Origin: Nitrospirota bacterium
GTDB lineage: Bacteria > Nitrospirota > Nitrospiria > Nitrospirales > Nitrospiraceae
DNA length: 64,000 nt
Direction of reading: 5' to 3'
NCBI GenBank assembly: GCA_963700335.1
Contig: CAVOXE010000004.1
Coordinates: 124,633 to 188,632 of the forward strand
Shown here: piece by piece, positions 9,849 through 62,679 of the stretch
How the letters are laid out: each line of letters starts with the position of its first letter
Position numbering within the stretch: the stretch's first letter is position 1
Notes under the pieces: generated by a model
The model's database searches: none
Told to the model about the DNA's origin: nothing
Seen by the model: only the letters and a program-made list of their open reading frames with translations
Position numbers and translations under genes: made by a program

Positions 9849-9961
9849 AAGGAGATGGCAAGCAAGGACATTGTTGCTCACTCGTGCGCGTGTCCGCATT
9901 GCACCGTCTCCGTATGAACTTGGCCATGGTATAGTGAAGCACGATACTTTGCCGGCTGCTG

Positions 9962-10491: not shown

Positions 10492-10595
10492 TTTTGAGTC
10501 TTTTTATCTGCTTGCAGACAGCTACACGATAGTTTGATTCCTGCCTTCTACTTATTTACTATTCTCTAGAGCGTAATGAATGAAAGGAGGAGTGT

Positions 10596-11243: not shown

Positions 11244-11738
11244 TCCCTAACCGCTACGTTGCAAAGGATTTATACGTAGTATCGCAAGCGGAGCGTTGAG
11301 AATTTCCACGCCACTAGTAAATTCTTCGACACCTCCTTTCGTCCAGATTCACCGACGGGCGGTGGGCGTTGATTTACCGGTCATAAAAAATCGCAATAAT
11401 TGTCGTTGTTTATCTGTCCTCGCTGACTCGCACGCCGTGGGGGTCATGCGGAGGAACGACATGTCAAGAAGTGTAAAGGCCTTTGACACATGTCTGTGCG
11501 TACTTCCCCATGGTCAAAGAGGAAATGAGAGAGAATCGGAAGAAGAAGAACAACGGCGTTGAATTGATAGGCGTTCTTAATGTAGGGCCAACACTGAGCG
11601 ACAGAAAAAAGCGAGGACCACCGATAATCAGAAAGTGTTAAGTTTTCCGACGCCGACTTTGGGCGTAGAACTGCGATGAGGCAGAAAGAGCAGTCAGAAA
11701 GGGGCGAAAGAGTCGAGGTGAGTGGGCGGTGCGAAAGA

Positions 11739-11930
11739 CTAGACGGCCTTTTTCACAAGACCGGAACGAAGGCAGCGCGTACAGACGCGGATGCGCTTGG
11801 CAGCTCCATTGATCAACGCCCGAACCGTCTGGAGATTGGGACTAAAGATCCGCTTCGTTTTGTTGTTGGCATGACTCACATTATGTCCGGACTGATGCCG
11901 CTTTGCGCAAATCTCACATACATAGGCCAC
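11739..11930 (-). CDS. rpmB: 50S ribosomal protein L28
   Basis: [34 protein letters not shown]... is the L28 signature. The GTG at 11930 lies 9 nt downstream of GAGGA. The track ORF starts at 11939. Confidence 0.9.
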
Positions 11931-25629: not shown

Positions 25630-25979
25630 AATCTCATTCCTGTGAGGTAAAGGAAGTCAGCGTGGCCACAGTGTAAAAGATCAAATCACCAGAAACAATG
25701 CGACAAAAGTCGCTTCACCTTTGGCATTATATAAGGACTAATCTGCCGACAGGCGCAACCTCGTTTAAGCAATTGCCAACTACCAAAAGAGATTGTGGCA
25801 GACCATGAAACCGCCTGGATGTACATCTCCTGTCTGAGTTTGTACCTTCCACAAATAACCCAAGCAATACGAAATAAGATTGGCGCACGAGACTTTGGAC
25901 GTAAGCCACCCGTCTAATAGTTTCAGCCTAACGACACTGGTACAAAGATGCATCGCCCCATTCCATGATGGAGGTCTGT

Positions 25980-26267
25980 ATGCATGCACGAACGCTCTTT
26001 GCAGTGATCCTTGCCGTGCCGGTTATTTTCCTGACCGCTATGGACGTCGAACCGGCCGGAGCGATGTCTTTTGGTAATCATCACAATAATGGCGGTGGAT
26101 CGGCTCCCAGCAATGCTGGAAACAGCATATCTTCATCGTCGACTTCGACCATCACGTCGTTGGATGCGCCTCCATATATGACCCCGGTGCCTGAACCCTC
26201 AAGTATCGTGCTCTTAGGATCGGGAATATTCGCGTTGGGATGGTGGCGATACAGACGACATAATTAG
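25980..26267 (+). CDS. PEP-CTERM sorting-domain protein (small Ser/Gly/Asn-rich exosortase cargo)
   Basis: Signal peptide MHARTLFAVILAVPVIFLTAMDVEPAGA. Low-complexity middle. C-terminus VPEPSSIVLLGSGIFALGWWRYRRHN gives the PEP motif, a TM helix and a basic tail. GGAGG lies 5 nt before the ATG at 25980. Confidence 0.82.
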   Translation: MHARTLFAVILAVPVIFLTAMDVEPAGAMSFGNHHNNGGGSAPSNAGNSISSSSTSTITSLDAPPYMTPVPEPSSIVLLGSGIFALGWWRYRRHN

Positions 26268-29010: not shown

Positions 29011-29223
29011 TCCTTCCACTCCTGATTCGTCACCCATGGCAGCGCCTCCTTTACTGTTAGAGAAGAATGTTGTCATTTCTTTCATAAGACGATCGCTGTA
29101 GCTGGATCGGTATGCAGATGATGAGTACATTGTGACTACGATGTGACGCACGGTGAACCTGTTGCATCAACTAGTAGACAAATAGTGCCGACAACCAATC
29201 AGCAAATGAAGGGCGGAGCAACT

Positions 29224-31492
29224 ATGAACCACAAGACGGACCTTGTTCAATTTCAGTCATTCTCTGGAGACGGGCCAGCGAATCCTCTCGAAGAATACGT
29301 CAATATCTTACGGCGCCGCTTCTGGCTTGTTGCCGGTTTCGCTGTAGGGTGCGCCGTTGTCGCAGCGATCTGGTCCTATTCGTTGACCCCGGTCTACCAA
29401 GGGAAGGCCACGGTCGTTATTGAGCGCGAGGGACCCGGCGCTCTGGACAGAGATAAGTCCATCCAACAGGATATTAGTCCTGAGTATTTCCAGACTCATT
29501 TCGAATTGATGAAAAGCCGCCAGGTGCTTCAGCGAACTGCGCATCTGCTCGATCTCCAGAATCAATCCGAGTATCAACCACAGCCTTCCCAAGTCAAGAC
29601 GATTGTATATTCCCTGTTGCCTGACTTCCATCGTTGAATTCTTGGAGCCTAAAGGAAGGGACATCCAAGATTTCTGAGGAAGAGAAGGAGGATACTCTCC
29701 TGAGGAATTTCGCTCAGCAGATCGAAATCATGCCTATACGAGGAGCCAGGCTGGCTTATATTACTGTGAATTCTAAGGATCCTAAATTTGCTGCACGAGC
29801 CGCTAACACGCTGGCAACAGTCTACATCGAGGGTGCTCAGGAATTAAGCTCAAGTTCCAAAGAAAAAGCCGCACGGTGGTTTACCGGTCAACTTGAGGAT
29901 GCGCGTAAGAAAGTCGAAGCGTCGCAACAAGCGCTCTACGTGTTCCGCTCGAAGCACGAGCTTCTTGGAGGCCATCAACAGGAAGCCGTGGCCGCACACA
30001 AGATCACAGAATTGAATTCAGAACTCTTCAAAGCGGAAATTGAAAAAGCGAGGGCGCAAACACGTTACGAGCAGATTGAAATGGTTCTTCGCAAGCGATC
30101 AGACAATGGCGCCATCAATTGGTCCAATTTAGATGCGGCGACCGAAGTCTTGACTTCGTCGCTGATTCAAACGCTTCGCGCCCAGGAGATCCAGGTTTCA
30201 GGACAACTGGCGGAACTCTCGGACAAATACGGCCCGCTTCATCCCAAAATGGCTCGAACGCAAGCGGAGCTACAGGATCTTCGCGAACGGATACAACAGG
30301 AAGTTCAAAAGATTTATGACTCGGTCAAGCGCGAGTACGACGGCGCACTGGCTAGGGAACACGCCATCCGTGAGGCCGTGAAGCGCCATCGACAGGAAAA
30401 GGTCAAGGTCGAGCAGTATGAAATCGAAGAAGGGATTTTGGAACGAGAAGCCGAAAGCAACCAGCACCTGTACGATATTTTTCTGAAAGTCACGAAAGAA
30501 GCTGATCTCTCTTCGGGGATAAAACCTAGCAACGTCTACCTTGCCGATCCAGCGGTAGCAAGCTCGCTGCCGGTCAAACCGAAGAAGAAGTTAAATACGA
30601 TGTTGGGCCTCCTCGTCGGACTGATATCAGGAACTGGGCTGGCCTTTGTTCTGGAGGCTCGTGATCGCAGTCTAAAGGGACCCGACGATGTTGAACGGTA
30701 TCTGCCCAGTGTGTCGTTGCTTGGCATGGTGCCCGCTCCTATCAAAGACCGATGCTTCGAACGGGCAGCTCTTGCCTTCCACAAACCCCTTGGGTCCGGC
30801 CGCTGAAAGTTTTCGCACCATTCGGACAAGTTTGCTCCTGTCCAATCCAGGCCAACTGCCGTCCAGTGTGCTTATTACCAGTCCTGGGGTGAATGAAGGG
30901 AAAACCACCCTTGCCGTCAATCTTGCGACAGCCATGGCTCAATTGGAGGATACGCGAGTCATCCTCATCGATGCCGACCTTCGGAAAGACCAAGTTCATC
31001 CCATTTTTGAAATCCAAACGGGAAATGGTGAACCCAAGGGACTTGTCGACTATCTAGAAGGGCAGAGCGGACCTGCGTTCCGTTATGCATCAGACCGAAA
31101 TCCCCAATCTTTCGGTCATTCCCAGCGGCTGTTGCCCATCCAATCCATCGGAATTGCTCCACTCAAAGTACATGAGTATTCTTCTCAAGCGTTGTCAACA
31201 GGAAGGATTCCACATTATTCTAGATGCTCCGCCGGTACTGCCCGTTACCGATCCTGTAATTTTGGCTACCAAAGTTGATGGCGTACTGGTGGTCGTGAGC
31301 GCAGGTCAGACGACTCGCGAAGGTTGCCGGTTGGCGATTCAAAGTCTCACGGCCGCCGGCGGGAAGATTCTGGGGATCGTACTGCAAAAGGCCCGAGTCT
31401 CTGCGGTTCCTTATTATTTTGCGTATGCAGGCTCAAAGAACGGAGTGACCCATCCAGCCAAGGCGCTTCCCTCCTCTTCTGAACTTCTGTGA
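29224..31492 (+). pseudogene. Wzc-type polysaccharide co-polymerase fused to a BY-tyrosine kinase, split by 3 frameshifts
   Basis: Four track ORFs in frames 1, 0, 1 and 2: 29143..29637, 29634..30806, 30688..31278 and 31085..31492. They read collinearly as follows. Wzz domain with TM1 (FWLVAGFAVGCAVVAAIW). Coiled coil. TM2 (LGLLVGLISGTGLAFVL). AESFRTIRTSL. Walker A SPGVNEGKTT. ILIDADLRK. Walker B IILDAPPV. Tyr-rich tail PYYFAYAG. The breaks lie near 29630, 30730 and 31075. Confidence 0.75.
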
Positions 31493-36345: not shown

Positions 36346-38437
36346 ATGAATCGACCAAGATTCTTCGCTTTATTGCTGGCAGTCGCCATAAGCGTGAGTC
36401 TTAAGTTTGGGGCTGCGTATGCACAAACTCCCTCTCACAGTCGGTCGGTGGGACTTGGGCCCTGTGTGGGATATTGCACCGGTCCACATGGTGCTACTGC
36501 CTAATGGAAAGGTGATGTTCTGGCCGGGAGATTATATTAGCGGGGATGATGCCCGTCTGTGGGATCCGGTCACGAACACCCTGACCAGTCTCTCGAAGGC
36601 GACGTACGATCTCTTTTGCGCCGGTCATACGTTGATGTCGGACGGCAATCTCTTCGTTCCAGGAGGAAATCTCCTCACCCCCTTCAATGGATTGCCCAAC
36701 GCCAGCATCTACAATCCGGTGACCAATATCTGGACACGGTTGCCGGACATGAATGCCGCCCGTTGGTATCCGACCACTACCGCGACGGGCAACAGACGAA
36801 GTACTGGTCATGACGGGCACGATTGATAGCGTTCAACTGGAAAATCCACTGCCGCAGGTTTGGCAACCGTCACGCTGGGAGCCTGGCGCAATCTCACGAA
36901 CGCGCTTCTCAAAATCTACAACTATTCCTGGGTGTATTGGACTCCGTTTGGGAATGCCTTTGTGGCGGGCCCGCGGCAAAACACACGTTATCTCAATATT
37001 TCAGGCACTGGAGCGTGGACCGACGTTGCCACGTTCAATTATCCCGACGTACGTGATTACGGGTCCTCGGTCATGTATGGCGGCCCATGGAACATCCTCA
37101 TTGCGGGCGGCGGCCAGCCACCGACCAATACGGCCGAAATCATCGATCTGGCGGATGCAACTCCGACTTGGCAGTACACCAACCCGATGGCCTATCCACG
37201 TCGGCATTTCAATCTCACGCTGTTACCCGATTCGAATGTGCTGGCCATCGGCGGCTCGGGCGGCACTGGATTTAACGATACGACCTGTCCCGTCTATCCA
37301 TCCGAAATGTGGAACATCTTTACCCACACCTGGACGACGATGGCGAGCCAGACGGTGGGACGGTTTTACCATTCGAGTGCGCTCTTGCTGCCGGACGGAC
37401 GGGTGCTGAGCGCCGGTGGAAACTATACGTATCAGACGGAGATCTATTCGCCTCCGTATCTTTTTAAGGGAGCCCGGCCGACGATCACGTCCGCTCCTAC
37501 CAGCGCCGACTACGGAACGACGTTCTTCGTCGGCACACCGAATGCGACCAGCATTGCGAATGTCAGGCTGATCCGTCTGGCAGCCGTCACCCATGCGTTC
37601 GATCAGAACCAGCGGTATCTTCCGCTGAGCTTTACGCCAGACCACTGGAGGGACTCAATGTCACCGCTCCCCCAGATAGCAACAAGGCTCCTGTCGGCCA
37701 CTATATGCTGTTTATCCTGAACGCGAACGACGTGCCCTCAGTCGCGAAAATCATTCAAATCGGGGTTGCGGGAGCGCCACCGCCGCCGCCACCGCCGCCG
37801 CCGCCACCGCCGCCTCCACCGCCGCCGCCGCCACCACCACCGCCGCCGCCTCCACCGCCGCCCCCTCCAGGCATTCCTGCGGCACCGACCGGACTTGTGA
37901 CGACAGTCAGTGTCTAGTACTCAGATCAACCTGACCTGGGTTGATAATGCGAACAATGAGAGTGGATTCAAAATAGAACGTACAACAGGAACGGGTAGTT
38001 TTGCTCAAATAGCGACGGTAGGGACAAACGTCACGACGTATTCGAACACTGGTTTGACGGCTGCAACGAACTACAGCTATCGCGTGCGCGCAACAAACAG
38101 CAGTGGCGACTCCGCATATTCCAATACTGCGACCGCAACCACGCAGACCGCCGGAGCACAGTCTCTCACGCTCAACGGGGGGACCGGGCCGATCACCGTC
38201 GCACGGGGGGCCACGATCACGATCACAGTCGTGAATCCCACGGGCAATTCCCTAAGATTGGATCGGGATTTATAAGGTCGGCCAGTCATCGAGTACCAAG
38301 AGTGTAGTGGAGCATTATGTCAATATACAACCTATACGATTCCCTCCAGCACACCGGTCGGCACATATGAGGCCGATTATTTGCCAATGATTCGCTCTAT
38401 TCTGTTGGCGACGAGTGCTACGATCACGGTGCAATGA
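36346..38437 (+). pseudogene. Secreted glyoxal/galactose-oxidase-like protein (Kelch propeller + DUF1929 E-set) with poly-Pro linker, FN3 domain and a C-terminal domain; at least 7 frameshifts
   Basis: Signal peptide MNRPRFFALLLAVAISVSLKFGAAYA with AAGGA RBS. Family blocks: DLFCAGHTLMSDGNLFVPGG, ARWYPTTT, GRFYHSSALLLPDGRVLSAGG, IYSPPYLFKGARPTI, VTHAFDQNQRYLPL and APVGHYMLFILNANDVPSVAKIIQI. Then 31 Pro. Then FN3 (INLTWVDNANNESGFKIERTT...YSYRVRATNSSGDS). The tail ends ...LLATSATITVQ. The pieces are track ORFs 36407.., 36753.., 36860.., 37705.. and 37910.. plus unlisted frames. Confidence 0.65.
37777..37869 (+). repeat. Run of 31 consecutive proline codons (CCG/CCA/CCT), a low-complexity triplet tract
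   Basis: Read directly from the sequence. Track ORF 37705..37917 shows A-P(31)-GIPAAPTG. Confidence 0.95.
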
Positions 38438-39944: not shown

Positions 39945-41182
39945 ATGGCACGGTTGCGGTCAAATGTTCATGAAAAGCGGAATGCGAAGGGGATTTACCT
40001 TGCCGATGCCGATTCAGAAATTACTGGCAATTCCAGAAAGCCCATTGCGATCCTATGCTTGATCACCGGCCTTGAGTACGGCGGCGCTGAGATGATGCTG
40101 TATAAGTTTCTTTCGCGCATGGACAAAACAAGGTTTACGGCCCAGGTTATTTCGATGATCGATCTCGGTCCTTTCAGCGGAAGAATCCAAGAGTTGGGTG
40201 TGCCTCTGTTGTCCCTTGGGATGCGACGGGGAAGTCCGAATCCGACTGGCATCCTACGGCTTGTTCGTTGGCTTCGCCAAAACCGACCTGATGTCATACA
40301 AACGTGGATGTACCACGCCGACCTCATGGGTGGCTTCGCAGCCAAGCTGGCGGGAGGCATACCGGTTGCATGGAACATTCGACACACAGAATTTATTGCT
40401 CACGACAATCCGACTAACCGTGTATACGATGCGGATGTGCGCTCGATTATCTAAGTGGCTTCCCACCCGCATTGTCTGCTGTTCGGAAGCCTCTCGGGAA
40501 GTGCACACCAAACTAGGATATGCAGCCGAAAAAATGGTCGTAATTCCTAACGGAATGGATTTGGCTGCTTTCAGGCCTGATGAGGCGGCGCGCGACTCGG
40601 TCAGGAAGGAACTTAACCTTTCATCTGATGTCGTGATTATCGGCATCGTGGGAAGATTCGACCCAAACAAAGACCATCGGAATTTCATTCAGGCTGCCGC
40701 TTTACTGTGTCGCGAAGGATTAAACGCACATTTCCTGTTTTGTGGCGACGATATGACCTGGGAGAATACTCAACTAGCCTCGTGGTTTGATGGGACAGGT
40801 ATCGGAGAACATAGCCATTTGCTCGGTCACCGAGATGATATGCCTCGTCTGACGGCCGCCTTTGATATTGCCTGCGTTTCTTCTTCGAGTGAGGGCTTTC
40901 CAAATGTCATCGGGGAGGCCATGAGCTGTGAGATTCCGTGTGTGGTGACTGATGTTGGAGACTCGGCGCTGATCGTTGGCCAAACTGGCACGCGTTGTGC
41001 CTCCGCGAGATTCTAAAGCGTTGGCTGCCGGCTTGCGCGAGTTGATCGATCTCGGCCGTGAGGGGCGACGCCAGATTGGCAGAACGGCTCGTCAACGGGT
41101 AAAAGAACTCTATGACTTGCCCGACATTGTACGGCGGTACGAGAACCTCTACGAGGAACTGGCAAATACCTATCGCTCGTAA
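39945..41182 (+). pseudogene. GT4-family glycosyltransferase, 2 frameshifts; tandem paralogue of 41317..42591
   Basis: Track ORFs 39945..40454, 40198..41016 and 40976..41182 align end to end with the intact neighbour. Shared blocks: LCLI(T/S)GLE(Y/H)GG(A/T)EMMLY, RPDVIQTWMYHADL, EGFPNVIGEAMSCEIPCVVTDVGDSALIVGQTG and LPDIVRRYENLYEELA. The breaks lie near 40400 and 40990. Confidence 0.7.
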
Positions 41183-43682: not shown

Positions 43683-45660
43683 ATGTGTGGAATTAGCGGA
43701 TTTCTCGATTTATCACATCGGTCCAGAAACGATGAACTCCAGGCTACCGTCTTGAAGATGGTGAATACGCTTCACCATCGTGGCCCCGACGATAGCGGAG
43801 CCTGGGCGGACGCTGAAACAGGAATCGCGCTGGGGCATCGCCGCTTGTCGATTGTGGATCTGTCCCCCGAAGGGCAGCAACCGATGCGCTCCGTATGCGG
43901 TCGGTACGTGATCAGTTTTAACGGCGAAGTGTATAACTTCAAGGCGCTCCGCGCTGAAATGGAAGGATTGGGCCATACATTTCGCGGCCATTCCGATACC
44001 GAGATCATGTTGGCCTGTATCTCTCAATGGGGCCTTCTTCCGTCGGTGGAACGTTTCAATGGAATGTTTGCGTTTGCCTTGTGGGACCGCGCAGAGAGAA
44101 AGCTACACCTGGTTCGTGATCGTCTCGGCGAGAAGCCTCTCTATTATGGATGGATGGGCAGGACGTTTCTGTTCGGCTCGGAATTGAAGGCCTTATGTGC
44201 ACATCGTAGTTTTAAACGCGAGCTGAATCGTGATGCCTTGGCCCTCTATTTGCGTCATAACTATATTCCCGCTCCCTATTCGATCTATCAGAATGTGTTC
44301 AAGGTACAACCCGGCATGATCGTGACCATCGATCCGGCCGACGGCAGTGGATCGGTTGCTGCTTTACCGTATTGGTCAGCTCGGCGATGCTGCCGAACGA
44401 GGAGTGGCTGAACCGTTTTCAGGATCCGTCGATGATGCCCTAGCTGCACTTGGATGAATTATTATCCGATGCCGTTAAACTACGTATGCATGCCGATGTG
44501 CCGCTTGGCGCGTTTCTGTCGGGCGGGCTCGATTCTTCGACGATTGTCGCACTGATGCAAGCCCAAAGCACAAAGCCGGTGCAGACTTTTACTATTGGAT
44601 TCTACGAGAGTCGCTACAACGAAGCTCAGAATGCGAAGGCTGTCGCCCATCACTTGGGGACAGAGCATACTGAACTGTACGTCCGACCCGAAGAAGCCAT
44701 GGCCGTGATCCCGCGGCTAGCGACCTTGTATGATGAGCCATTTGCAGACTCGTCTCAAATCCCTACATTTCTGATTTCTCAGTTGGCTCGGCGGCATGTC
44801 ACGGTGAGTTTGTCAGGCGATGCGGGCGACGAACTATTTGCCGGTTACGACCGGTACTTTCTGGGCCACACGCATTTGGGACAAGGTAAACCGAATTCCC
44901 ATGGGACTTCGGAGCTTGGGCGCCAAAGGTTTGAAGACGATCTCACCCGCGTATATGGGAAGCCATCTTCGGGGGACTGCGACCGTTGTTCTCCCGATAG
45001 ACTGAAGATGCGAAACCCGCGAGATAAGCTTGGCCGGCTTGCTGAATTACTCATGACCGACTCTCGTGAAGCGCTGTACTTGAGCCTGGTTTCTCATTGG
45101 AAGGCGCCCGCATCGTTAATCTATGGCGCCAAGGAACCGCAAACGCTCTTGACTGATCCTGGGCAGTGGGCAAACCTGCCGGAGTTTACGCAGCGCATGA
45201 TGTATCTCGATATGGTGACCTATTTGCCTGACGACATTCTGGTCAAAGTGGATCGAGCCAGCATGGGCGTAGGGTTGGAGGCGCGTGTCCCTTTTCTCGA
45301 CCACCGTGTCGTCGAGTTTGCGTGGCAAATTCCTCTTATCGATGAAAATCCGTAACGGTCAGGGCAAGTGGCTGTTACGGCAGCTCTTGCACCGATATGT
45401 TCCGAAGGCATTGGTCGAACGGCCCAAAATGGGGTTTGGTGTCCCCATCGATGGCTGGCTGCGCGGGCCACTCCGGGAGTGGGCCGACACGCTATTAGAT
45501 GAAAAACATTTGAAAGATCAAGCGATCTTCGATCCCAATCCGATTCGCAGCGATATGGGCGGAACACCTCTCCGGTAGGCAGGATTGGCACTACTATTTA
45601 TGGGACATCCTCATGTTCCAATCCTGGTTAGAGCACCAAAAAAGTAACGGTGTCATGTAA
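43683..45660 (+). pseudogene. Glutamine-hydrolysing asparagine synthase (AsnB-type amidotransferase, as found in exosortase/EPS loci), at least 6 frameshifts
   Basis: MCGISGF Ntn start and HRGPDDSG. FLSGGLDSS PP-loop. DEPFADSSQIPT. YLPDDILVKVDRASMGVGLEARVPFLD. GFGVPIDGWLRG. Tail WAEHLSGRQDWHYYLWDILMFQSWLEHQ. Pieces come from track ORFs 43683.., 44450.., 44820.. and 45285.. plus unlisted frames. The last in-frame stop is TAA at 45658-45660. Confidence 0.75.
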
Positions 45661-52863: not shown

Positions 52864-53889
52864 ATGAGTATCAGACACAAAACAAGGCGCCTTGGTCATT
52901 TCGTTGGACTTCGAGCTCTACTGGGGCATGCGAGATGTAAGGGGGATCGAGAATTATCGGGAGACTCTCTTAGGGGAGCGACTGGTCGTTCCGGCCCTGT
53001 TGCAGCTCTTTCAGGAGTATGAGATTCATGCCACATGGGCGACGGTCGGCTTTATGTTCTGTGAGACGCGCGATGAACTCCTCCGGCAAGCGCCGACGCA
53101 AGAAGCCACTGTATGTCAATCACGAACTTTCGCCATATCCTCACCTCTCACACGTCGGACGGGACGAACAGGAAGACCCATTTCATTTTGCGCCTTCGCT
53201 CATCAAGCTCATCGCGTCGTCCCCCCATCAGGAAGTGGCAACCCACACGTTCTCTCATTACTATTGTTTAGAAAAAGGACAAGACATAGAGTCCTTCCGT
53301 GCTGATCTCGAAGCGGCGAAGAAGGTCGCGAGCAAATATACATTGAATATGGAAAGTCTTGTATTCCCACGCAACCAATTCAATGGCGACTATCTCTCGG
53401 CGTGCAAGGAATTAGGCATCAAGGCCTATCGTGGCAACGAACGTTCGTGGATTTACAGGGCGAAAAGCAGAGAGGATGAATCCCTATTTCGCCGTGCAGT
53501 GCGGCTCCTGGATGCCTATGTCAATATCTCAGGTCATAACTGCTATGCTCTCGAACGGCTTCCGCGCGACAGTACCAGTAAATGTTCCGTCAAGCCGATT
53601 TCTTCGGCCTGTTTCCATCAGTCGTCGGTTGCTGGAGCCTTTGCGTATGCGCCGGATCCTGTCCGATCTGACGCATGCGGCAAAGAAGGGATTGGTGTAT
53701 CACCTGTGGTGGCATCCGCATAATTTCGGCGACCACATGGAAGAAAACTTGGCGTTTCTCAAAAAGATTTTGGATCATTACGCGAATCTGAAAAAGGTTT
53801 ATGGCATGGAAAGTCTTAATATGGGAGACATCGCTCGGAGAGCATTGAATGGCAATGACGTCGTACATAACGCCTTGGTAAATGGGTAG
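52864..53889 (+). pseudogene. Polysaccharide deacetylase-like protein, 3 frameshifts
   Basis: ATG at 52864 (MSIRHK), then a shift in an A-run into LVISLDFELYWGMRD... (ORF 52892..). It continues in ORF 53019.. (EVATHTFSHYYC, LVFPRNQF) and ORF 53431.. (LVYHLWWHPHNFG). Family call is moderate. Confidence 0.55.
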
Positions 53890-54798
53890 GCTTTCATTTC
53901 TGATAAGGCATCTTATGAATGTGAACCTAAGGCCCTTCACGGCCTCGATTCCCTGGTGGGGAAAGATCGCCGCGAAACTGGTTTTGGCGCGTTTACCGGT
54001 AGATTATACAATCTGGAAAGGGTTGCACTTATTCGAGTGCGGCCTCATGGAAGATCCCAGCTATGCCTATGGCGTATTTAAAAAACATTATGATGCGGCC
54101 CAATCACGACGGACATTCCGTGGGTTCGTCGGACTGGAGCTAGGCCCAGGAGATTCGCTATTCACAGCGATGATTGCCAATGCGTACGGGGCCACGGGCT
54201 ATTATTTGGTTGATGTGAAGGACTATGCGAAACGTGACATGCAATGCTATAGGGCCTTGACACAATTTCTCACGGACCGAGGGATTGGCAACGATCTCAG
54301 AAGACGGCTTGACATCGACAGAAGCGCTTCTCACCGCGTGTCATGCGACCTACGGTACGCGCGGGCTCAGATCGTTGCAGGCAATTCCAGATCACTCAGT
54401 CGATTACAGTTGGTCGCACACCGTTCTGCAGCACGTCCCCTTGAAAGAATTTAGACAAACAATCGGAGAGCTCCGGCGCCAGCTTCGTCCCGATGGCATC
54501 AGCTCACATTGGGTAGATCTGCAAGACTGCATAGGGGGAGGCCTGAACAATCTCAGATTCTCAGAAGCCGTGTGGGAATCGCCCTTCATGGCCAACTCCG
54601 GCTTTTACACTAATCGCATACGATATTCGGAAATGTTGGAAGTATTCAAAGAAGCTCGATTCGAAGCTGAGGTCGTACAGTGTCAAGCGTTGGGATCGAC
54701 TTCCGATTCAGCGCTCAAAGCTGTCGCCACGATTTCAGAAGCTGTCTGACGAGGATTTGCGCGTGCGAGTCTTTCATGTGATTTTAAGACCGGTCTAA
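53882..54798 (+). pseudogene. SAM-dependent methyltransferase-like protein, 2 frameshifts
   Basis: GLELGPGDSLFTAMIA (motif I-like) in ORF 53882..54454. VDYSWSHTVLQHVPLKEF...LRPDGISSHWVDL in ORF 54285..54749. The tail RVFHVILRPV is in a third frame and ends with TAA at 54796-54798. Confidence 0.55.
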
Positions 54799-54847
54799 TG
54801 GGTTTGTTATCTAAACTTTCCACGCTTCATAATTAAGGTTGATCGAG

Positions 54848-56312
54848 ATGAGATATATGCTGGGCAGGTTGAAGTATTGTGTGACGTGCTGGGCGTTAAG
54901 CGTGGCACTGAGTTGTGTTTTGATGGTTGACGACCGGGCATGCAGCGTCGTCGACAGCGCATCAAAGTTACCGGCTCGGACCCAATGACGTGGTTCGGAT
55001 CCAAGTCTATGGAGAAGAAGACTTAACGATCGAAAGTAAAATTGATGGCGACGGAAATATTAATTTTCCATTACTGGGGATGGTGACGGTCGCGGGTAAG
55101 ACTCTCCCGGAACTTCAGGAATATCTAGGCGCTCAGTTGGCACGAGGCTATGTTCGCACGCCGCGGGTCACCGCCTATATATTCAAATATCGAAACTTTT
55201 ACGTCAGTGGAGAGGTCAAGACTCCAGGAGGCCATCCGTATGAGGAGGGGCTCAGCGTTCAAAAAGCGATCACGATGGCAGGTGGTCTGACGGACAAGGC
55301 AGAACGGGACAACGTTTACGCCTTACGGCGCGTCAATGGTCAAGAAGAGACAGTGCCGGTTACATTGGAGAGCCCGGTATACCCCGACGATACCATCGTT
55401 GTGCCTGAAGGACAGAAAATATACGTGAGTGGCGAGGTCAAGACGCCCGGCCGCTTTGGTTATGAAAAAGGATTGACCGTCCAAAAAGCGTTGAGCCTGG
55501 CAGGGGGGCGCACAGAAAAGGCGGAAAAAGGTGTCATCAAAGTGACGCGCGTGACGGAAGGCCTGGCGGCAACGTTGCCTGTGAATCCAGAGGCGGTTGT
55601 CATGCCGGGCGACATTCTCGTGGTCGAGCCGCAAGATTATAAATTCTACACCAGCGGAGAAGTGAAAAACCCTGGCGGATATTCCCATAAGGAGGGTCTG
55701 ACCGTTCACAAAGCTATTGCCATGGCAGGAGGGCTCACCGAAAAAGCAATGCCTGGCGATTTGCATATCCTTCGTTCGGTGAATGGACGAGAGGAAACAC
55801 TCGAGGTTAAATTGGATACCTTGGTCCTCCCAGACGACATCATCGTGGTAGCTCAGGGAGAGAAGTTTTTTGTTAACGGAGAAGTGAAGATACCGGGTCG
55901 CTATTTATACGAGAAGGGGCTGACCGTGCACAAGGCCATCACGATGGCCGGTGGGTTTACCGACAAGGCTGAAAAGGCCGCGATTAAAGTCACTCGGCAG
56001 GTCGATGGGAACCCTCACACAGTGGAGGCCGATCTTGAGGCCAGGGTGCTTCCCAATGATTTTATTGTCATCGCCCAGATGCATAAAGTGTATGTGAATG
56101 GAGAAGTAAAGAAGGCCGGTGACTATCCGTATGAGAAGGGCCTGACGATCCATAAAATCATCACTATGGCTGGTGGGTTTACGGACAAGGCGGCGGTGGG
56201 GCGGACGAAGATTTTACGGATTGTGGATGGGGAGGAGCAATCGTTGCGGGTGACGCTGGATGCGCAGGTGTTGCCGGAGGATATCGTCGTGGTGCCGCGC
56301 AGTTTCTTTTAA
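54848..56312 (+). pseudogene. Wza-like polysaccharide export protein A: Poly_export domain + 5 SLBB modules; signal peptide is out of frame
   Basis: Track ORF 54927..56312 starts at a TTG with no signal peptide. An ATG at 54848 encodes MRYMLGRLKYCVTCWALSVALSCVLMV in the -1 frame and would join near 54925-54935. Poly_export: YRLGPNDVVRIQVYGEEDL...INFPLLGMVTVAGKT. Five repeats of the type FYVSGEVK.PG.Y.YE.GLTV.KAI.MAGG.T.KA follow. Confidence 0.75.
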
Positions 56313-56384
56313 GGCGGCGGGGAGACGGACGAAGCGGCCGGGACGGGAGAGTCGTGATTGGAGCGGGACCGTGAGGGAAGGACC

Positions 56385-58286
56385 ATGAACAGAGCACGGG
56401 CGCGAGGGACGAGGGGGCTACGGAAGGGACTGTGGCTGGGCATCCTGCTGGCGTCATGGGTAGCGGTGGCGGTGGCGGCGACCGCGCCCGGGTACCGGCT
56501 GGGGCCCAATGATGTGGTGCGCATTCAAGTCTATGGCGAAGAAGACTTGACGGTGGAGAGCAAGGTGGACGGCGAGGGCACGATTCATTTTCCGTTAGTG
56601 GGCCAGGTGGCGGTCGGAGGGAAGACCACGCAGGAGCTACAGGAGTTGCTGACGACGCGCTTAGCGGGGGGCTATATGCGCGCCCCGCGCGTGACGGCCT
56701 ATGTGTTGAAGTATCGCAATATTTACGTCAGTGGAGAAGTGCGGACGCCGGGCGGACATCCGTATGAGGAGGGCCTCACGGTGCAGAAGGCCATTACGAT
56801 GGCGGGTGGCATTACCGAGAAGGCCGAGCGGGGCGGCGCGGTGCGCATTGTGCGGTCCGTCAACGGGCAGGAGACGGCAGTACTGGTTCAGTTAGACAGT
56901 CTCGTCTTACCGGACGATACGATTGTGGTGGCGGAGGGGCAGCGAGTGTATGTGAGTGGGGAGGTGAAGACGCCGGGGCGGTATCTGTATGAGAAGGGGT
57001 TGACGGTGCACAAGGCGCTGGGGATGGCCGGGGGGCGTTCGGAGAAGGGGGAGAAGGGGCTGATCAAAGTGACGCGGCTGACCCAGGGCGTGGCCGAGAC
57101 GCAGGTGTTGGCGCCGGAGGCGGCGGTGCTGCCCGATGATATTTTGGTGGTGGAGCCGCAGGACTATAAGTTCTACGCGAGCGGCGAGGTGAAGAATCCC
57201 GGCGGCTATCCCTATAAGGAGGGGCTGACGGTGCATAAGGCGCTGGCCATGGCCGGCGGGCTGACGGAGAAGGCCGAGCGCGGAGACGTGCACATCTTAC
57301 GCGCGGGCAAGGGGCAGGAGGAGACGCTGGTCGGCAAGCCCGAGAGCCTCCTGCTGCCGGACGATACGATTGTGGTGGCGGAGGGGCAGCGAGTGTATGT
57401 GAGTGGGGAGGTGAAGACGCCGGGGCGGTATCTGTATGAGAAGGGGCTGACGGTGCACAAGGCGCTGGGGATGGCCGGGGGGCGCTCGGAGAAGGGGGAG
57501 AAGGGGCTGATCAAAGTGACACGGCTGACCCAGGGCGTGGCCGAGACGCAGGTGTTGGCGCCGGAGGCGGCGGTGCTGCCCGATGATATTTTGGTGGTGG
57601 AGCCGCAGGACTATAAGTTCTACGCGAGCGGCGAGGTAAAGAATCCCGGCGGCTATCCCTATAAGGAGGGGCTGACGGTGCATAAGGCGCTGGCCATGGC
57701 CGGCGGGCTGACGGAGAAGGCCGAGCGCGGGGACGTGCACATCTTACGCGCGGGCAAGGGGCAGGAGGAGACGCTGGTCGGCAAGCCCGAGAGCCTCCTG
57801 CTGCCGGACGATACGATTGTGGTGGCGGAGGGGCAGCGAGTGTATGTGAGTGGGGAAGTGAAGACGCCGGGGCGGTATCTGTATGAGAAGGGGTTGACGG
57901 TGCACAAGGCCATTACGATGACCGGCGGCTTTACGGAGAAAGCGGATAAGGCCACGATCCACGTGACGCGCGTCGTCAACGGTGTCGCGCAGACCCGGGA
58001 AGCTACGCTGGAGACGTCCGTGCTGCCGGATGATTTCGTCGTCATCTCCCAGCTGCACAAGATTTATGTCAACGGGGAGGTGAAGAAAGCCGGCGACTAT
58101 CCCTATGAGAAGGGGCTGACGATTCATAAGATCATTACGATGGCCGGGGGCTTTACCGATAAAGCAGCCGCCGGCCGGACGACCATCTTGCGCATCGTCA
58201 ATGGCGAGGAGCAATCCCTCCGCGTCACGCTTGATGCCCTCGTGCTCCCCGAAGATATCGTCGTCGTCCCCCGCAGCTTCTTCTAG
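56385..58286 (+). CDS. Wza-like polysaccharide export protein C: Poly_export domain + 7 SLBB modules
   Basis: The ATG at 56385 (GGGAAGGA RBS) gives the signal peptide MNRARARGTRGLRKGLWLGILLASWVAVAVAA. The Poly_export domain is followed by 7 SLBB repeats. The protein ends ...VVVPRSFF. Confidence 0.85.
   Translation: MNRARARGTRGLRKGLWLGILLASWVAVAVAATAPGYRLGPNDVVRIQVYGEEDLTVESKVDGEGTIHFPLVGQVAVGGKTTQELQELLTTRLAGGYMRAPRVTAYVLKYRNIYVSGEVRTPGGHPYEEGLTVQKAITMAGGITEKAERGGAVRIVRSVNGQETAVLVQLDSLVLPDDTIVVAEGQRVYVSGEVKTPGRYLYEKGLTVHKALGMAGGRSEKGEKGLIKVTRLTQGVAETQVLAPEAAVLPDDILVVEPQDYKFYASGEVKNPGGYPYKEGLTVHKALAMAGGLTEKAERGDVHILRAGKGQEETLVGKPESLLLPDDTIVVAEGQRVYVSGEVKTPGRYLYEKGLTVHKALGMAGGRSEKGEKGLIKVTRLTQGVAETQVLAPEAAVLPDDILVVEPQDYKFYASGEVKNPGGYPYKEGLTVHKALAMAGGLTEKAERGDVHILRAGKGQEETLVGKPESLLLPDDTIVVAEGQRVYVSGEVKTPGRYLYEKGLTVHKAITMTGGFTEKADKATIHVTRVVNGVAQTREATLETSVLPDDFVVISQLHKIYVNGEVKKAGDYPYEKGLTIHKIITMAGGFTDKAAAGRTTILRIVNGEEQSLRVTLDALVLPEDIVVVPRSFF
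56910..57910 (+). repeat. In-frame 447-bp tandem repeat, ~2.2 copies (gene C)
   Basis: The anchor ccggacgatacgattgtggtggcggagggg recurs at 56910, 57357 and 57804, an exact 447-nt period. Units are near-identical. Confidence 0.92.
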
Positions 58287-58454: not shown

Positions 58455-59235
58455 ATGAACACTCGATCCCTTCGATTGAAATGGTGTCTGCTCAGTGTAT
58501 TTCTGACTTGCTTGATGTCTACCGCCGGCGTCGCATCACCCATATCCTCGCATCAAAGCTATCGATTAGGGGTCAATGATGTGGTGCGCATCCAAGTCTA
58601 TGGGGAAGAGGACCTGACGGTAGAAAGTAAAGTGGATGGCGATGGGAATATTAATTTTCCTTTGTTGGGGATGATATCCATAGCAGGCAAGACGAGTCTG
58701 GAGTTGCAGGAATATCTCACGACACGGTTGGCGGGCGGTTACGTACGGTCGCCGAAAGTCACGGCGTCCATCCTTAAATACCGAAATTTCTATGTGAGCG
58801 GAGAAGTGAAGAGCCCGGGAGGGTACCCCTATGAGGAAGGACTTAGTGTTCAAAAAGCACTCACCATTGCAGGGGGTATGACGGAAAAGGCCGAGAAGCA
58901 TGACTTGAATATCCTCCGATCGGTCAATGGGAATCCACAGATCCTTCCGGTCAAGGCCGATAGCGTCGTTCTGCCCGATGATACGATTGTCGTGGCGGAG
59001 GGCAAGCGCTTCTATGTCAATGGTGAAGTGAAGTCGCCAGGCCGTTATCTCTACGAGAAAGGCCTCACGGTGCACAAGGCCATCACCATGGTTGGGGGGG
59101 TTTACGGACAAGGCGGCGGTGGGGCGGACGAAGATTTTACGGATTGTGGATGGGGAGGAGCAATCGTTGCGGGTGACGCTGGATGCGCAGGTGTTGCCGG
59201 AGGATATCGTCGTGGTGCCGCGCAGTTTCTTCTAG
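58455..59235 (+). pseudogene. Wza-like polysaccharide export protein D: Poly_export + 2 SLBB modules, frameshifted in a G7 tract
   Basis: Signal peptide MNTRSLRLKWCLLSVFLTCLMSTAGVA. After ...HKAITMVGG the G7 run (59094-59100) throws the frame, so track ORF 58455..59282 ends in Gly/Arg-rich nonsense. With G6 the sequence reads FTDKAAVGRTKILRIVDGEEQSLRVTLDAQVLPEDIVVVPRSFF and stops at 59233-59235. Confidence 0.75.
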
Positions 59236-59309
59236 AGGCGGCGGGGAGACGGACGAAGCGGCCGGGGACGGGAGAGTCGTGATTGGAGCGGGACCGTGAG
59301 GGAAGGACC

Positions 59310-61658
59310 ATGAACAGAGCACGGGCGCGAGGGACGAGGGGGATACGGAAGGGACTGTGGCTGGGCATCCTGCTGGCGTCATGGGTAGCGGTGGCGGTGG
59401 CGGCGACCGCGCCTGGGTACCGGCTGGGGCCCAATGATGTGGTGCGCATTCAAGTCTATGGCGAAGAAGACTTGACGGTGGAGAGCAAGGTGGACGGCGA
59501 GGGCACGATTCATTTTCCGTTAGTGGGCCAGGTGGCGGTCGGAGGGAAGACCACGCAGGAGCTACAGGAGTTGCTGACGACGCGCTTAGCGGGGGGCTAT
59601 ATGCGCGCCCCGCGCGTGACGGCCTATGTGTTGAAGTATCGCAATATTTACGTCAGTGGCGAAGTGCGGACGCCGGGCGGACATCCGTATGAGGAGGGCC
59701 TCACGGTGCAGAAGGCCATTACGATGGCGGGTGGCATTACCGAGAAGGCCGAGCGGGGCGGTGCGGTGCGCATTGTGCGGTCCGTCAACGGGCAGGAGAC
59801 GGCAGTGCTGGTCCAGTTAGACAGTCTCGTCTTGCCGGACGATACGATTGTGGTGGCGGAGGGGCAGCGGGTGTATGTGAGTGGGGAGGTGAAGACGCCG
59901 GGGCGGTATCTGTATGAGAAGGGGTTGACGGTGCACAAAGCGCTGGGGATGGCCGGGGGGCGTTCGGAGAAGGGGGAGAAGGGGCTGATCAAAGTGACGC
60001 GGCTGACCCAGGGCGTGGCCGAGACGCAGGTGTTGGCGCCGGAGGCGGCGGTGCTGCCCGATGACATTTTGGTGGTGGAGCCGCAGGACTATAAGTTCTA
60101 CGCGAGCGGCGAGGTGAAGAATCCCGGCGGCTATCCCTATAAGGAGGGGCTGACGGTGCACAAGGCGCTGGCCATGGCCGGCGGGCTGACGGAGAAAGCC
60201 GAGCGCGGGGACGTGCACATCTTACGCGCGGGCAAGGGGCAGGAGGAGACGCTGGTCGGCAAGCCCGAGAGCCTCCTGCTGCCGGACGATACGATTGTGG
60301 TGGCGGAGGGGCAGCGAGTGTATGTGAGTGGGGAGGTGAAGACGCCGGGGCGGTATCTGTATGAGAAGGGGCTGACGGTGCACAAGGCGCTGGGGATGGC
60401 CGGGGGGCGTTCGGAGAAGGGGGAGAAGGGGCTGATCAAAGTGACGCGGCTGACCCAGGGCGTGGCCGAGACGCAGGTGCTGGCGCCGGAGGCGGCGGTG
60501 CTGCCCGATGATATTTTGGTGGTGGAGCCGCAGGACTATAAGTTCTACGCGAGCGGCGAGGTAAAGAATCCCGGCGGCTATCCCTATAAGGAGGGGCTGA
60601 CGGTGCATAAGGCGCTGGCCATGGCCGGCGGGCTGACGGAGAAGGCCGAGCGCGGGGACGTGCACATCTTACGCGCGGGCAAGGGGCAGGAGGAGACGCT
60701 GGTCGGCAAGCCCGAGAGCCTCCTGCTGCCGGACGATACGATTGTGGTGGCGGAGGGGCAGCGAGTGTATGTGAGTGGGGAGGTGAAGACGCCGGGGCGG
60801 TATCTGTATGAGAAGGGGCTGACGGTGCACAAGGCGCTGGGGATGGCCGGGGGGCGCTCGGAGAAGGGGGAGAAGGGGCTGATCAAGGTGACGCGGCTGA
60901 CCCAGGGCGTGGCCGAGACGCAGGTGTTGGCGCCGGAGGCGGCGGTGCTGCCCGATGATATTTTGGTGGTGGAGCCGCAGGACTATAAGTTCTACGCGAG
61001 CGGCGAGGTAAAGAATCCCGGCGGCTATCCCTATAAGGAGGGGCTGACGGTGCACAAGGCCGTGGCCATGGCCGGCGGGCTGACGGAGAAGGCCGAGCGC
61101 GGGGACGTGCACATCTTACGCGCGGGCAAGGGGCAGGAGGAGACGCTGGTCGGCAAGCCCGAGAGCCTCCTGCTGCCGGACGATACGATTGTGGTGGCGG
61201 AGGGGCAGCGAGTGTATGTGAGTGGGGAGGTGAAGACGCCGGGGCGGTATCTGTATGAGAAGGGGTTGACGGTGCACAAGGCCATTACGATGACCGGCGG
61301 CTTTACGGAGAAAGCGGATAAGGCCACGATCCACGTGACGCGCGTCGTCAACGGTGTCGCGCAGACCCGGGAAGCTACGCTGGAGACGTCCGTGCTGCCG
61401 GATGATTTCGTCGTCATCTCCCAACTGCACAAGATTTATGTCAACGGCGAGGTGAAGAAAGCCGGCGACTATCCCTATGAGAAGGGGCTGACGATTCATA
61501 AGATCATTACGATGGCCGGGGGCTTTACCGATAAAGCAGCCGCCGGCCGGACGACCATCTTGCGCATCGTCAATGGCGAGGAGCAATCCCTCCGCGTCAC
61601 GCTCGATGCCCTCGTGCTCCCCGAAGATATCGTCGTCGTCCCCCGCAGCTTCTTCTAG
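59310..61658 (+). CDS. Wza-like polysaccharide export protein E: Poly_export domain + 9 SLBB modules
   Basis: Near-identical to gene C with one extra 149-aa (two-SLBB) unit. ATG at 59310 has the same RBS and signal peptide. Confidence 0.85.
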   Translation: MNRARARGTRGIRKGLWLGILLASWVAVAVAATAPGYRLGPNDVVRIQVYGEEDLTVESKVDGEGTIHFPLVGQVAVGGKTTQELQELLTTRLAGGYMRAPRVTAYVLKYRNIYVSGEVRTPGGHPYEEGLTVQKAITMAGGITEKAERGGAVRIVRSVNGQETAVLVQLDSLVLPDDTIVVAEGQRVYVSGEVKTPGRYLYEKGLTVHKALGMAGGRSEKGEKGLIKVTRLTQGVAETQVLAPEAAVLPDDILVVEPQDYKFYASGEVKNPGGYPYKEGLTVHKALAMAGGLTEKAERGDVHILRAGKGQEETLVGKPESLLLPDDTIVVAEGQRVYVSGEVKTPGRYLYEKGLTVHKALGMAGGRSEKGEKGLIKVTRLTQGVAETQVLAPEAAVLPDDILVVEPQDYKFYASGEVKNPGGYPYKEGLTVHKALAMAGGLTEKAERGDVHILRAGKGQEETLVGKPESLLLPDDTIVVAEGQRVYVSGEVKTPGRYLYEKGLTVHKALGMAGGRSEKGEKGLIKVTRLTQGVAETQVLAPEAAVLPDDILVVEPQDYKFYASGEVKNPGGYPYKEGLTVHKAVAMAGGLTEKAERGDVHILRAGKGQEETLVGKPESLLLPDDTIVVAEGQRVYVSGEVKTPGRYLYEKGLTVHKAITMTGGFTEKADKATIHVTRVVNGVAQTREATLETSVLPDDFVVISQLHKIYVNGEVKKAGDYPYEKGLTIHKIITMAGGFTDKAAAGRTTILRIVNGEEQSLRVTLDALVLPEDIVVVPRSFF
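59835..61282 (+). repeat. In-frame 447-bp tandem repeat, ~3.2 copies (gene E)
   Basis: The same anchor recurs at 59835, 60282, 60729 and 61176. Confidence 0.92.
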
Positions 61659-61720
61659 TAGAGCAACCTCAGGTAAACGCATCAGGCTAATGAACAACGA
61701 AGAGAACAGTGAGGTGGCCG

Positions 61721-62002
61721 ATGAATAACGAGCCATGGGTCGTCAAAACACGCAATGGAACGGTATGGGGAAAAATTCTTCGTGTCATCATCGATCCAGC
61801 CAGTCGGCAGATCGTATCGGTCGATGTCATGCTTAGCGCACAAGACCGATTTATTCGAGTGCCGTGGAAAAGATTAGAGGTCGAGAACGACGACATCATA
61901 CTGAGCATAACGGAAGGTGAAGTTGAACATCTTGAGTCTCCATCAGGTGCAGGGATGCCAACTACGATGACGCTGGAAGACTCCGCGGCATGTAACGCCT
62001 AG
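61721..62002 (+). CDS. Small PRC-barrel-like protein
   Basis: MNNEPWVVKTRNGTVWGKILRVIIDPASRQIVSVDVMLSAQDRFIRVPWKRLEV fits the PRC-barrel pattern (G..vG.i.d..iD...g.i). GAGGTGG RBS. Track ORF starts at the GTG at 61709. Confidence 0.55.
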   Translation: MNNEPWVVKTRNGTVWGKILRVIIDPASRQIVSVDVMLSAQDRFIRVPWKRLEVENDDIILSITEGEVEHLESPSGAGMPTTMTLEDSAACNA

Positions 62003-62112
62003 AGCTCATACAGTCAATTGCAGCGTCACGGCGAAGTTTGACCGTAGGCCTGAGTTCATGAACACAAAAGGTATCTAACGCCTCCGGCTTTGACGGTTGA
62101 ATAAAGGGCTTC

Positions 62113-62679
62113 ATGTACCGACGGATTTTCATCGCGACAGTTCTCGCAACGGCCGCGTTTCTCGTGGCTCACATCGTGAATTTAATGGTCGCCCATGCCC
62201 TGACACGGAGTATCACCCTTCGCCAGATGTCGGCCAAAATGGAAAATCCTCCGGCTTCGAAAGTCGATCATCTCAAGCTCACCGAAGAAATTCTGGCGAG
62301 CGGAATATTCGGCGGACCGGAAGCTGAAGCGGCTCCCGCATCTTTGCACCCGAAAGGCGCCAGCGCGATCAGTGAAGCGGAGGCTCTCGTGTCGATAGGA
62401 CCGCCGATCGATGCCGCGAAGAAGGTCAAACTAGTCGGAACGGTGGTTGGAGATGATAAGGTCGACCTCGCGGTTGTCGAAGAGATCAGCACAAAGAAAC
62501 AAACGCTCTACCATCTCCATGACTTGATCGTGAACGTGGGGCAGATCACTCAAATTCGAAAAGATGCCATCCTCATTCGGCAAGGCGCGCAACACGAAAC
62601 CTTGGAACTCGACTATGCGGTTTCCCCTGTCCAACCCGGCACACAGGTCGTCATCCCGACCACTCCCTCCGCTCAGTAA
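62113..62679 (+). CDS. Type II secretion GspC-like protein
   Basis: N-terminal TM anchor (IFIATVLATAAFLVAHIVNLMV). The C-terminal HR-type domain KLVGTVVGDDKVDLAVVEEISTKKQTLYHLHDLIVNVGQITQIRKDAILIRQGAQHETLEL is typical of GspC/PilP-like partners of secretins. Confidence 0.65.
   Translation: MYRRIFIATVLATAAFLVAHIVNLMVAHALTRSITLRQMSAKMENPPASKVDHLKLTEEILASGIFGGPEAEAAPASLHPKGASAISEAEALVSIGPPIDAAKKVKLVGTVVGDDKVDLAVVEEISTKKQTLYHLHDLIVNVGQITQIRKDAILIRQGAQHETLELDYAVSPVQPGTQVVIPTTPSAQ

Follow-up and report, generated by a model that had tools for sequence, protein, structure and literature searches.

SLBB domains have been known to occur in one to eight repeats in polysaccharide export proteins since the domain was defined (PMC1796856), and a 2022 catalogue of the OPX proteins counts 1-14 of them in Class 1 and 1-7 in Class 3 (PMC9603273). 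The closest described relatives of the proteins considered here are Wza of Escherichia coli (Class 1; PDB 2J58) and WzaB/WzaX/WzaS of Myxococcus xanthus (Class 3; PDB 9N9A; PMC9603273, PMC12819527). How Class-3 OPX proteins span the periplasm is an open question. Measured periplasm widths are 210-442 angstroms (PMC9603273), and published heights are ~62 angstroms for D1 plus D2 of WzaB and ~100 angstroms for D1-D3 of Wza; as WzaB reaches only ~62 angstroms, a 2026 study must invoke an extending co-polymerase (PMC12819527). The present study concerns a 64,000-nucleotide stretch of a Nitrospirota bacterium (contig CAVOXE010000004.1, positions 124,633 to 188,632, hereafter the window). It carries two recently duplicated OPX genes, named C and E, each of which contains an in-frame array of a near-identical 447-nt cassette encoding two SLBB domains. 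The units are selected and recombine, and their number differs between the two paralogues as well as between close relatives.

An in-frame 447-nt cassette array in genes C and E

The array of gene E, the main finding of this work, extends over 59830..61282 on the plus strand and holds 3.2 copies of the 447-nt (149-aa, two-SLBB) unit, with full units at 59835-60281, 60282-60728 and 60729-61175. In gene C, 2.2 copies of the same unit occupy 56905..57910 on the same strand (full units 56910-57356 and 57357-57803). Tandem Repeats Finder reports the 447-nt period at 59833-61282 in E (98% matches, 0% indels, score 2809) and at 56910-57910 in C (98% matches, 0% indels, score 1960). Pairwise identity among the five full units of C and E is 97.8-99.3%, and such identity over 1-1.4 kb is, from the alignments, far in excess of chance. 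An earlier note, made from the letters of the window, had listed seven starts with this period. Those at 56910, 57357, 59835, 60282 and 60729 indeed open full units, whereas 57804 in C and 61176 in E open partial copies, where near-identity is kept over ~107 nt only. When compared over the whole 447 nt, the partial copies are 56-57% identical to the full units; beyond ~107 nt, they continue as an older, diverged terminal SLBB pair.

The tracts have sharp edges in a sliding comparison, at ~56905 and ~57910 in C and at ~59830 and ~61282 in E. These edges fall within SLBB domains and not between them, the tract starting at LPDDTIVV and ending at TVHKA. As the earlier note had it, the unit is in frame and comprises two SLBB domains, which Pfam places 74-75 aa apart. 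The two domains are alternating subtypes, with ~50% identity when compared out of register. Gene C (56385..58286, plus strand; Poly_export and seven SLBB domains, ending in PRSFF) encodes 633 aa from the likelier ATG (56385) or 642 aa from an upstream TTG (56358), and gene E (59310..61658, plus strand; Poly_export and nine SLBB domains, with the same signal peptide and C-terminus as C) encodes 782 aa from the likelier ATG (59310) or 791 aa from an upstream TTG (59283). Their products are identical to the public proteins P0125 and P0122, respectively, both encoded on a 257,633-nt contig in NCBI and ENA. The 149 aa by which the 791-aa reading frame exceeds the 642-aa one, also noticed earlier, correspond exactly to one unit; this is the sole length difference between the two genes, which are otherwise ~99% identical outside the array.

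Open reading frames (ORFs) of 100-206 aa are also found antisense to both arrays, where they repeat with the 447-nt period (59648-61736 and 56907-58214, minus strand). Considered as genes, these antisense ORFs (e.g. 60222-60665, minus strand) were set aside as by-products of the repeat and of high G+C.

Selection, timing and exchange among the units

The five window units vary at 14 sites, which comprise 13 synonymous changes and one Leu-to-Val replacement (two adjacent bases). In 11 units drawn from four sources, the mean proportion of synonymous differences (pS) is 0.10 and that of non-synonymous differences (pN) 0.005, giving a pN/pS of 0.054. Since the changes are almost all synonymous and the window arrays contain no indels, the copies may be taken as real and selected. 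Random consensus error is unlikely, because such errors should for the most part alter amino acids and, in long-read data, consist largely of indels; the idea that the unit differences are sequencing noise was rejected on the same grounds. The substitution pattern thus indicates that every unit is a real sequence under strong purifying selection.

Genes C and E are contained in a segmental duplication of ~2.1-2.6 kb on the plus strand. The first copy (56172..58286) includes the 3′ end of the preceding gene B, the intergenic spacer and gene C, and the second (59095-61658) the 3′ end of gene D, the spacer and gene E. The two copies are ~99% identical save one unit and three 1-nt indels. As to timing, for which the earlier note had suggested per-unit substitutions, unit-to-unit pS is 0.026-0.08 and C-to-E pS outside the array ~0.035, both below the pS of 0.09-0.145 between the window and its closest relatives at flanking genes. 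Moreover, window units differ from those of a 95%-identical relative (L019) at 16-23 positions and from one another at 3-10, while the two units of L019 are themselves 28 nt apart, and positional orthology is absent between the window and L019 units. Across 21 units from eight sources, informative sites are mosaic with respect to unit, gene and strain, which argues for recurrent exchange among units and between paralogues through unequal crossing-over and gene conversion.

The changes in cassette number result from homologous recombination between near-identical units, by unequal crossing-over or slippage, and gene conversion exchanges sequence between the units of one gene and between C and E. 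The unequal recombination advanced in the earlier note is in line with the differing unit numbers of relatives (see below), with the amendment that gene conversion within and between these two genes contributes too.

Protein class and a model for conduit length

According to Pfam, the four tandem OPX genes B, C, D and E encode an N-terminal Poly_export domain (PF02563; 80-84 bits for a cut-off of 28), followed by 5, 7, 2 and 9 SLBB domains (PF10531 stretches), respectively; the count of 9 in E lies above the published Class-3 range of 1-7. Neither Wza_C (PF18412) nor GfcC (PF06251) was found in B, C, D or E (Pfam, E <= 0.01). The hallmark of Class 1, a C-terminal Wza_C helix forming an outer-membrane alpha-barrel, is lacking both as a PF18412 match and as a helix in an AlphaFold monomer model of C, built on 26 homologues. 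In this model, the protein ends in a strand and stops 5 residues past the last SLBB strand.

The best PDB sequence match of the window proteins is Myxococcus WzaB (9n9a), followed by Wza. The alignment with 9n9a reaches the very C-terminus (PGDIVFVPESFF versus PEDIVVVPRSFF), and PRSFF, the terminus of B, C and E and also of D in relatives with an intact frame, aligns with the ESFF end of WzaB. An [RS]FF terminus is present in 117 of 124 family members. In WzaB, the SFF tail has been shown experimentally to be the docking motif for an outer-membrane porin (PMC12819527); the corresponding binding by the window proteins is a prediction. The beta1-beta2 loop appears short and devoid of the tyrosine ring, as in the WzaB paradigm, the sequence alignment opening an 11-residue gap in the query against Wza (2w8h) and none against WzaB. 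At the apical-loop Arg-Arg site, WzaB has YVRRPQV, C and E have YMRAPRV, B has YVRTPRV and D has YVRSPKV; the first Arg is kept and the second replaced. The signal peptide of C and E, MNRARARGTRGLRKGLWLGILLASWVAVAVAATAPGY, is of the Sec type and without Cys, so that neither protein has a lipobox there for N-terminal lipidation. Because only about half of Class-3 OPX proteins are lipoproteins (PMC9603273), lipidation is not strictly defining for the class. With Poly_export and SLBB domains, an SFF tail and no Wza_C or GfcC, B-E are, on their sequences, Class-3 OPX proteins by published definitions (PMC9603273), and the Wza-type (Class 1) identity assumed in the earlier note has to be given up.

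The best NCBIfam matches of the window proteins are EpsE (TIGR03028) and the XrtA/PEP-CTERM exopolysaccharide export protein (TIGR03027). For TIGR03027 (cut-off 180 bits), B scores 185, C 217 and E 253, and C and E likewise lie above the cut-off of TIGR03028; in each case, the score is summed over 4-8 stretches. C and E pass these cut-offs mainly because each repeat of the SLBB domain raises the score.

Analogy with Wza and WzaB suggests an arrangement in which the N-terminal Poly_export domain would face the inner-membrane co-polymerase, the C-terminal Ser-Phe-Phe would dock on an outer-membrane beta-barrel, and the SLBB domains would stack as rings into a periplasmic conduit. With every cassette, this conduit would gain two rings, and the locus would encode exporters with 2, 5, 7 and 9 rings. 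Extrapolation from the WzaB and Wza heights gives ~30-38 angstroms for an extra ring and ~60-75 angstroms for a cassette. By the same extrapolation, the 9-SLBB protein could reach ~300-370 angstroms, inside the measured range of periplasm widths.

Alternatively, the SLBB pairs could be beads on a string that bind polysaccharide or peptidoglycan, copy number tuning avidity or reach instead of conduit length. Indeed, SLBB was defined as a soluble-ligand-binding beta-grasp domain and proposed to bind polysaccharide or peptidoglycan sugars (PMC1796856). The model of C consists of repeated beta-grasp units with a domain pLDDT of ~75-88 but a pTM of 0.33, so that the inter-domain geometry is not fixed, and Foldseek matches it first with Wza D1-D3 and WzaB and then with linear polyubiquitin chains. 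However, in every solved OPX structure, SLBB-type domains are stacked channel rings (Wza, 2J58; WzaB model, PMC12819527), and the repeats keep apart two conserved, partner-contacting ends, Poly_export and the SFF tail, which suits a spacer or a conduit. The beads are, on this evidence, rather doubtful.

Unit number among close relatives and across Nitrospirota

The earlier note had called for a comparison of strains. Three collinear relatives of the window (94.6-100% identity), L001, L057 and L058, are available from three ENA assemblies, analyses ERZ25039520, ERZ25039568 and ERZ25039585, where contig names and frameshift loads suggest long-read assembly. The order in the window (on a 257.6-kb contig) is B - C (2 units) - D - E (3 units). 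L058 (183 kb) has C (at least 2 units) - D - E (3 units), and L001 (17 kb) has B - C (2 units) - D - E (2 units). In L057 (603 kb; region 7618-11503), B is followed directly by a single 3-unit gene, C and D being absent. Thus, E has three units in the window, L057 and L058 and two in L001, whose locus is 442 nt shorter than that of the window and otherwise collinear (94.6-98.3% identical). The absence of C and D from L057 means that gene number is polymorphic besides unit number. The first and third E units carry position-specific variants common to the window and L057, with 4 differences each, from which it follows that the three-unit state was inherited and is not the artefact of one assembly.

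Homologues of these proteins are assigned to Nitrospira, Nitrospirales or Nitrospirota wherever source names are given. The repeat period is 145-151 aa in all of the 120 homologues listed and exactly 149 aa in 116 of them. Among 124 proteins, the SLBB count lies between 2 and 11 and peaks at 5, 7 and 9 (2 SLBB in one protein, 4 in six, 5 in 55, 6 in 15, 7 in 36, 8 in three, 9 in five, 10 in two and 11 in one), and in-register units within one protein are 50-100% identical. Such counts at such unit ages require repeated gains and losses. In another Nitrospira lineage, a 4.6-Mb contig (L054) encodes a 772-aa OPX protein (P0007) with its own 447-nt, 3.2-copy, 99% identical array (10488-11913), the unit of which shares only 71% protein identity with that of the window; its neighbouring 547-aa paralogue contains an older array (12897-13827; 80-87% identity). 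In a relative 77% identical, assembled independently by two pipelines, one of them short-read (L055/L056), the gene at the E position has 9 SLBB domains, its third unit being 74-80% identical to the first two and its units 74-94% identical overall. Judged from these sequences, cassette duplication, loss and homogenisation are recurrent in the Nitrospirota lineage.

It may be asked whether 7 and 9 SLBB domains are instead a stable, functionally specified difference between the paralogues, unit identity stemming from gene conversion only, with no ongoing gain or loss. The 9 SLBB domains of the E-position orthologue in L055, the positional signatures that the window and L057 have kept in their first and third E units, and the strong purifying selection on every unit speak for such a view. 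It is nevertheless unlikely, given the two units at the E position of L001, the missing C and D of L057 and the gains and losses that the family counts demand.

In short-read contigs of close relatives (MEGAHIT k141/JGI; L021, L059-L062), the C and E positions alike encode a one-unit version of 484 aa. As all short-read contigs have 1 unit and all long-contig assemblies 2-3, the one-unit alleles were not accepted as a third copy-number state; they likely reflect repeat collapse. The window itself has many frame-broken genes: the co-polymerase/kinase (29143-31278, plus strand), a GT4 glycosyltransferase (39945-41016), an asparagine synthase (43683-45355), a deacetylase (52892-53889, in three frames) and a methyltransferase (53882-54749). 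OPX genes B (at its 5′ end) and D are also frame-broken in the window, and both are intact in short-read relatives. The window is therefore probably a long-read consensus that contains errors, and not a locus in decay. That the third E unit, or the whole C/E duplication, was assembled from strain variants of a shorter array would agree with this noise and with the single unit of the short-read contigs, but it is very improbable in view of the three E units in assemblies from three different ENA samples, the variants shared with L057, the almost exclusively synonymous and indel-free unit differences, the diverged units of the 9-SLBB orthologues from two independent pipelines, and the expectation that short-read error collapses a repeat and does not expand it.

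Taking the data together, we consider it probable that C and E, recently duplicated, contain a genuine in-frame 447-nt cassette array, the copy number of which changes by recombination; by analogy, this number would set the length of an SLBB conduit. Several points weigh against this interpretation. The copy numbers, including that within the population, rest on assemblies and not on reads; the window and its long-contig relatives, with their many frameshifted genes, are noisy consensus sequences; and the single unit in every short-read contig possibly represents a real one-unit strain. As regards the conduit, OPX length is uncorrelated with periplasm width across bacteria (PMC9603273), and no solved precedent was found for the stacking of more than three domain rings. 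The AlphaFold model does not fix the geometry between domains, the co-polymerase-binding Arg-Arg motif of WzaB is only half conserved in C and E (YMRAPRV), and both proteins lack the lipid anchor which WzaB needs for oligomerisation (PMC12819527). Finally, no porin-like family was found with Pfam or NCBIfam among ~45 ORFs of the window, these libraries possibly lacking WzpB-like models.

The other genes of the locus

The four tandem plus-strand genes of the OPX family cover 54.8-61.7 kb. Gene B (54839..56312; main ORF 54927-56312) encodes a paralogue with Poly_export and 5 SLBB domains, ending in PRSFF. In the window, its signal-peptide piece (54839-54988) and the main ORF lie in different frames, and the intact protein has 490 aa, signal peptide included, in L019. 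Gene D (58455..59282) encodes a short OPX protein with Poly_export and 2 SLBB domains. Its frame is shifted in the window by an extra G in a G-run near 59092, without which it would terminate in PRSFF at ~59235; an intact 259-aa version is found in L028 and in L060. From the last 140 nt of D through the spacer into the start of E, the sequence matches, at 99% identity, that running from the 3′ end of B through the spacer into the start of C, and the junction in D falls in a conserved SLBB motif. The make-up of D is explained by the same recombination as among the units, namely unequal crossing-over and gene conversion.

OPX genes B-E end a Wzx/Wzy-type, PEP-CTERM-associated exopolysaccharide locus. 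This locus includes genes for a NusG-like regulator, a GNVR co-polymerase with a tyrosine-kinase fragment, several GT4 glycosyltransferases, a Wzy-like polymerase, an asparagine synthase, WecA-like and Bac_transf initiating transferases, an aminotransferase, an epimerase and a deacetylase. The polysaccharide co-polymerase (29143..31278, plus strand; GNVR chain-length determinant and tyrosine-kinase fragment, split over frames) is presumably the inner-membrane partner of the OPX proteins. The locus is regarded as exosortase/PEP-CTERM-associated because of a 100-aa protein with a PEP-CTERM sorting signal (25965..26267, plus strand; TIGR02595, 25.2 bits for a cut-off of 16), which has a signal peptide, a Ser/Gly/Asn-rich middle and a C-terminal tail made of VPEP, a transmembrane segment and RRHN; no exosortase gene was identified among the window ORFs scanned. 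Within the same cluster are a HAF-repeat protein fragment (35519-36013, plus strand) and a Kelch/galactose-oxidase-like protein (36860-37720, plus strand), both of which may be PEP-CTERM cargo. Elsewhere in the window, a 626-aa ORF (7102-8982, minus strand) has an animal-haem-peroxidase domain (PF03098, E 5e-26), which is unusual-looking in a bacterium and unrelated to the arrays.

A 400-aa ORF (4463-5665) was examined as a WzpB- or EpsL-like beta-barrel partner and rejected, since it has no family match and its C-terminus is not beta-barrel-like; no other WzpB- or EpsL-like beta-barrel candidate was found in the window. Downstream of the OPX genes, there is in every case a 93-115-aa ORF (with a weak PRC-domain match in L001, L057 and L058), followed by a GspC-like gene, a secretin, GspE, GspF, GspG and minor pseudopilins. 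This gene series lies at 61709-62679 and onward in the window, where the GspC-like gene is seen, and at 9311-16944 in L001, 14301-22319 in L054, 12443-17980 in L055, 11566-21503 in L057 and 4803-12659 in L058. This synteny is kept even between relatives only ~70% identical. One may speculate that the secretin serves as the outer-membrane partner of these helix-less OPX proteins. Going further, the di-SLBB cassette could be an adjustable spacer, its number being selected and rapidly evolving, not neutral; the side-by-side exporters of 2, 5, 7 and 9 rings and the cassettes gained and lost between strains would then set the length of a conduit across the periplasm, with SFF docking possibly on the downstream secretin and a length matched to a wide Nitrospira periplasm. 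As a whole, this extended scheme seems unlikely. A wide periplasm is reported for Nitrospira; a literature search on an enlarged periplasm in this genus returned only a statement on Nitrotoga.

Novelty and significance

Contrary to the view in the earlier note that such length variation had not been described for Wza-type proteins, a variable SLBB number is a published property of these proteins (PMC1796856, PMC9603273). What appears undescribed is the near-identical DNA cassette and its polymorphism at the strain level: the searchable literature gave nothing relevant on Wza, OPX or SLBB proteins whose tandem repeats vary in copy number, and neither near-identical DNA cassettes inside OPX genes nor strain-level cassette-number polymorphism was found there. 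The same holds for a Class-3 subfamily with 9-11 SLBB domains and for several rungs of a length ladder in adjacent genes.

Neither the protein family nor the recombination mechanism is unusual; the natural length series gives a useful way into the open question of how Class-3 OPX proteins span the periplasm. Within a single locus, the Nitrospira subfamily offers SLBB counts of 2, 5, 7 and 9, the family as a whole reaching 11, with both partner-contacting ends conserved, and the one-cassette variants among close strains are a ready-made experiment on conduit length versus export. In addition, as short-read assemblies appear to collapse the units, exporter architectures in metagenome-assembled genomes of Nitrospira may be systematically under-called. 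Variation in the exopolysaccharide export apparatus is also of some applied interest, since Nitrospira flocs and biofilms matter for wastewater nitrification.

Comparison with known systems

With the EpsE and XrtA-PEP-CTERM loci, the window has in common a PEP-CTERM protein, an EpsF/EpsG-like co-polymerase, an asparagine synthase and a deacetylase. The TIGR03027 and TIGR03028 profiles of these systems comprise 169-239 positions, corresponding to one or two SLBB domains, whereas C and E carry more.

As far as the arrays are concerned, streptococcal alpha C/Rib and staphylococcal Bap-type adhesins contain long, in-frame, near-identical whole-domain repeats, whose copy number varies between close strains and which are gained, lost and homogenised through recombination. 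The arrays of C and E resemble them in their near-identical in-frame repeats (98-99%) and in a copy number that differs between close strains, as counted in noisy assemblies. In contrast to these exposed adhesins or antigens, an OPX protein is a periplasmic channel component and its units are under strong purifying selection; no evidence of immune- or phage-driven selection on the OPX arrays was seen.

With regard to Wza of E. coli, its D1-D3 domains superpose on Poly_export and the first two SLBB domains (Foldseek E 2e-16, TM 0.5 on target), and the window proteins would share its role in Wzx/Wzy-dependent polysaccharide export. Unlike Wza, they have neither the Wza_C amphipathic helix nor the long tyrosine-ring loop, and C and E are devoid of a lipoprotein signal.

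WzaB of M. xanthus has a single SLBB domain in 204 aa and is lipidated, whereas the window proteins have 2, 5, 7 and 9 such domains, with up to 11 in the family, and C and E have no lipobox Cys and a replaced second Arg in the Arg-Arg site; a WzpB-like porin gene was also not seen in the window. On the other hand, the Poly_export-then-SLBB order is the same in both, as are the short beta1-beta2 loop, the absence of a C-terminal membrane helix and of GfcC, and the identical Ser-Phe-Phe tail. Like the WzaB system, finally, the OPX genes of the window reside in a Wzx/Wzy-type locus together with a tyrosine-kinase polysaccharide co-polymerase.

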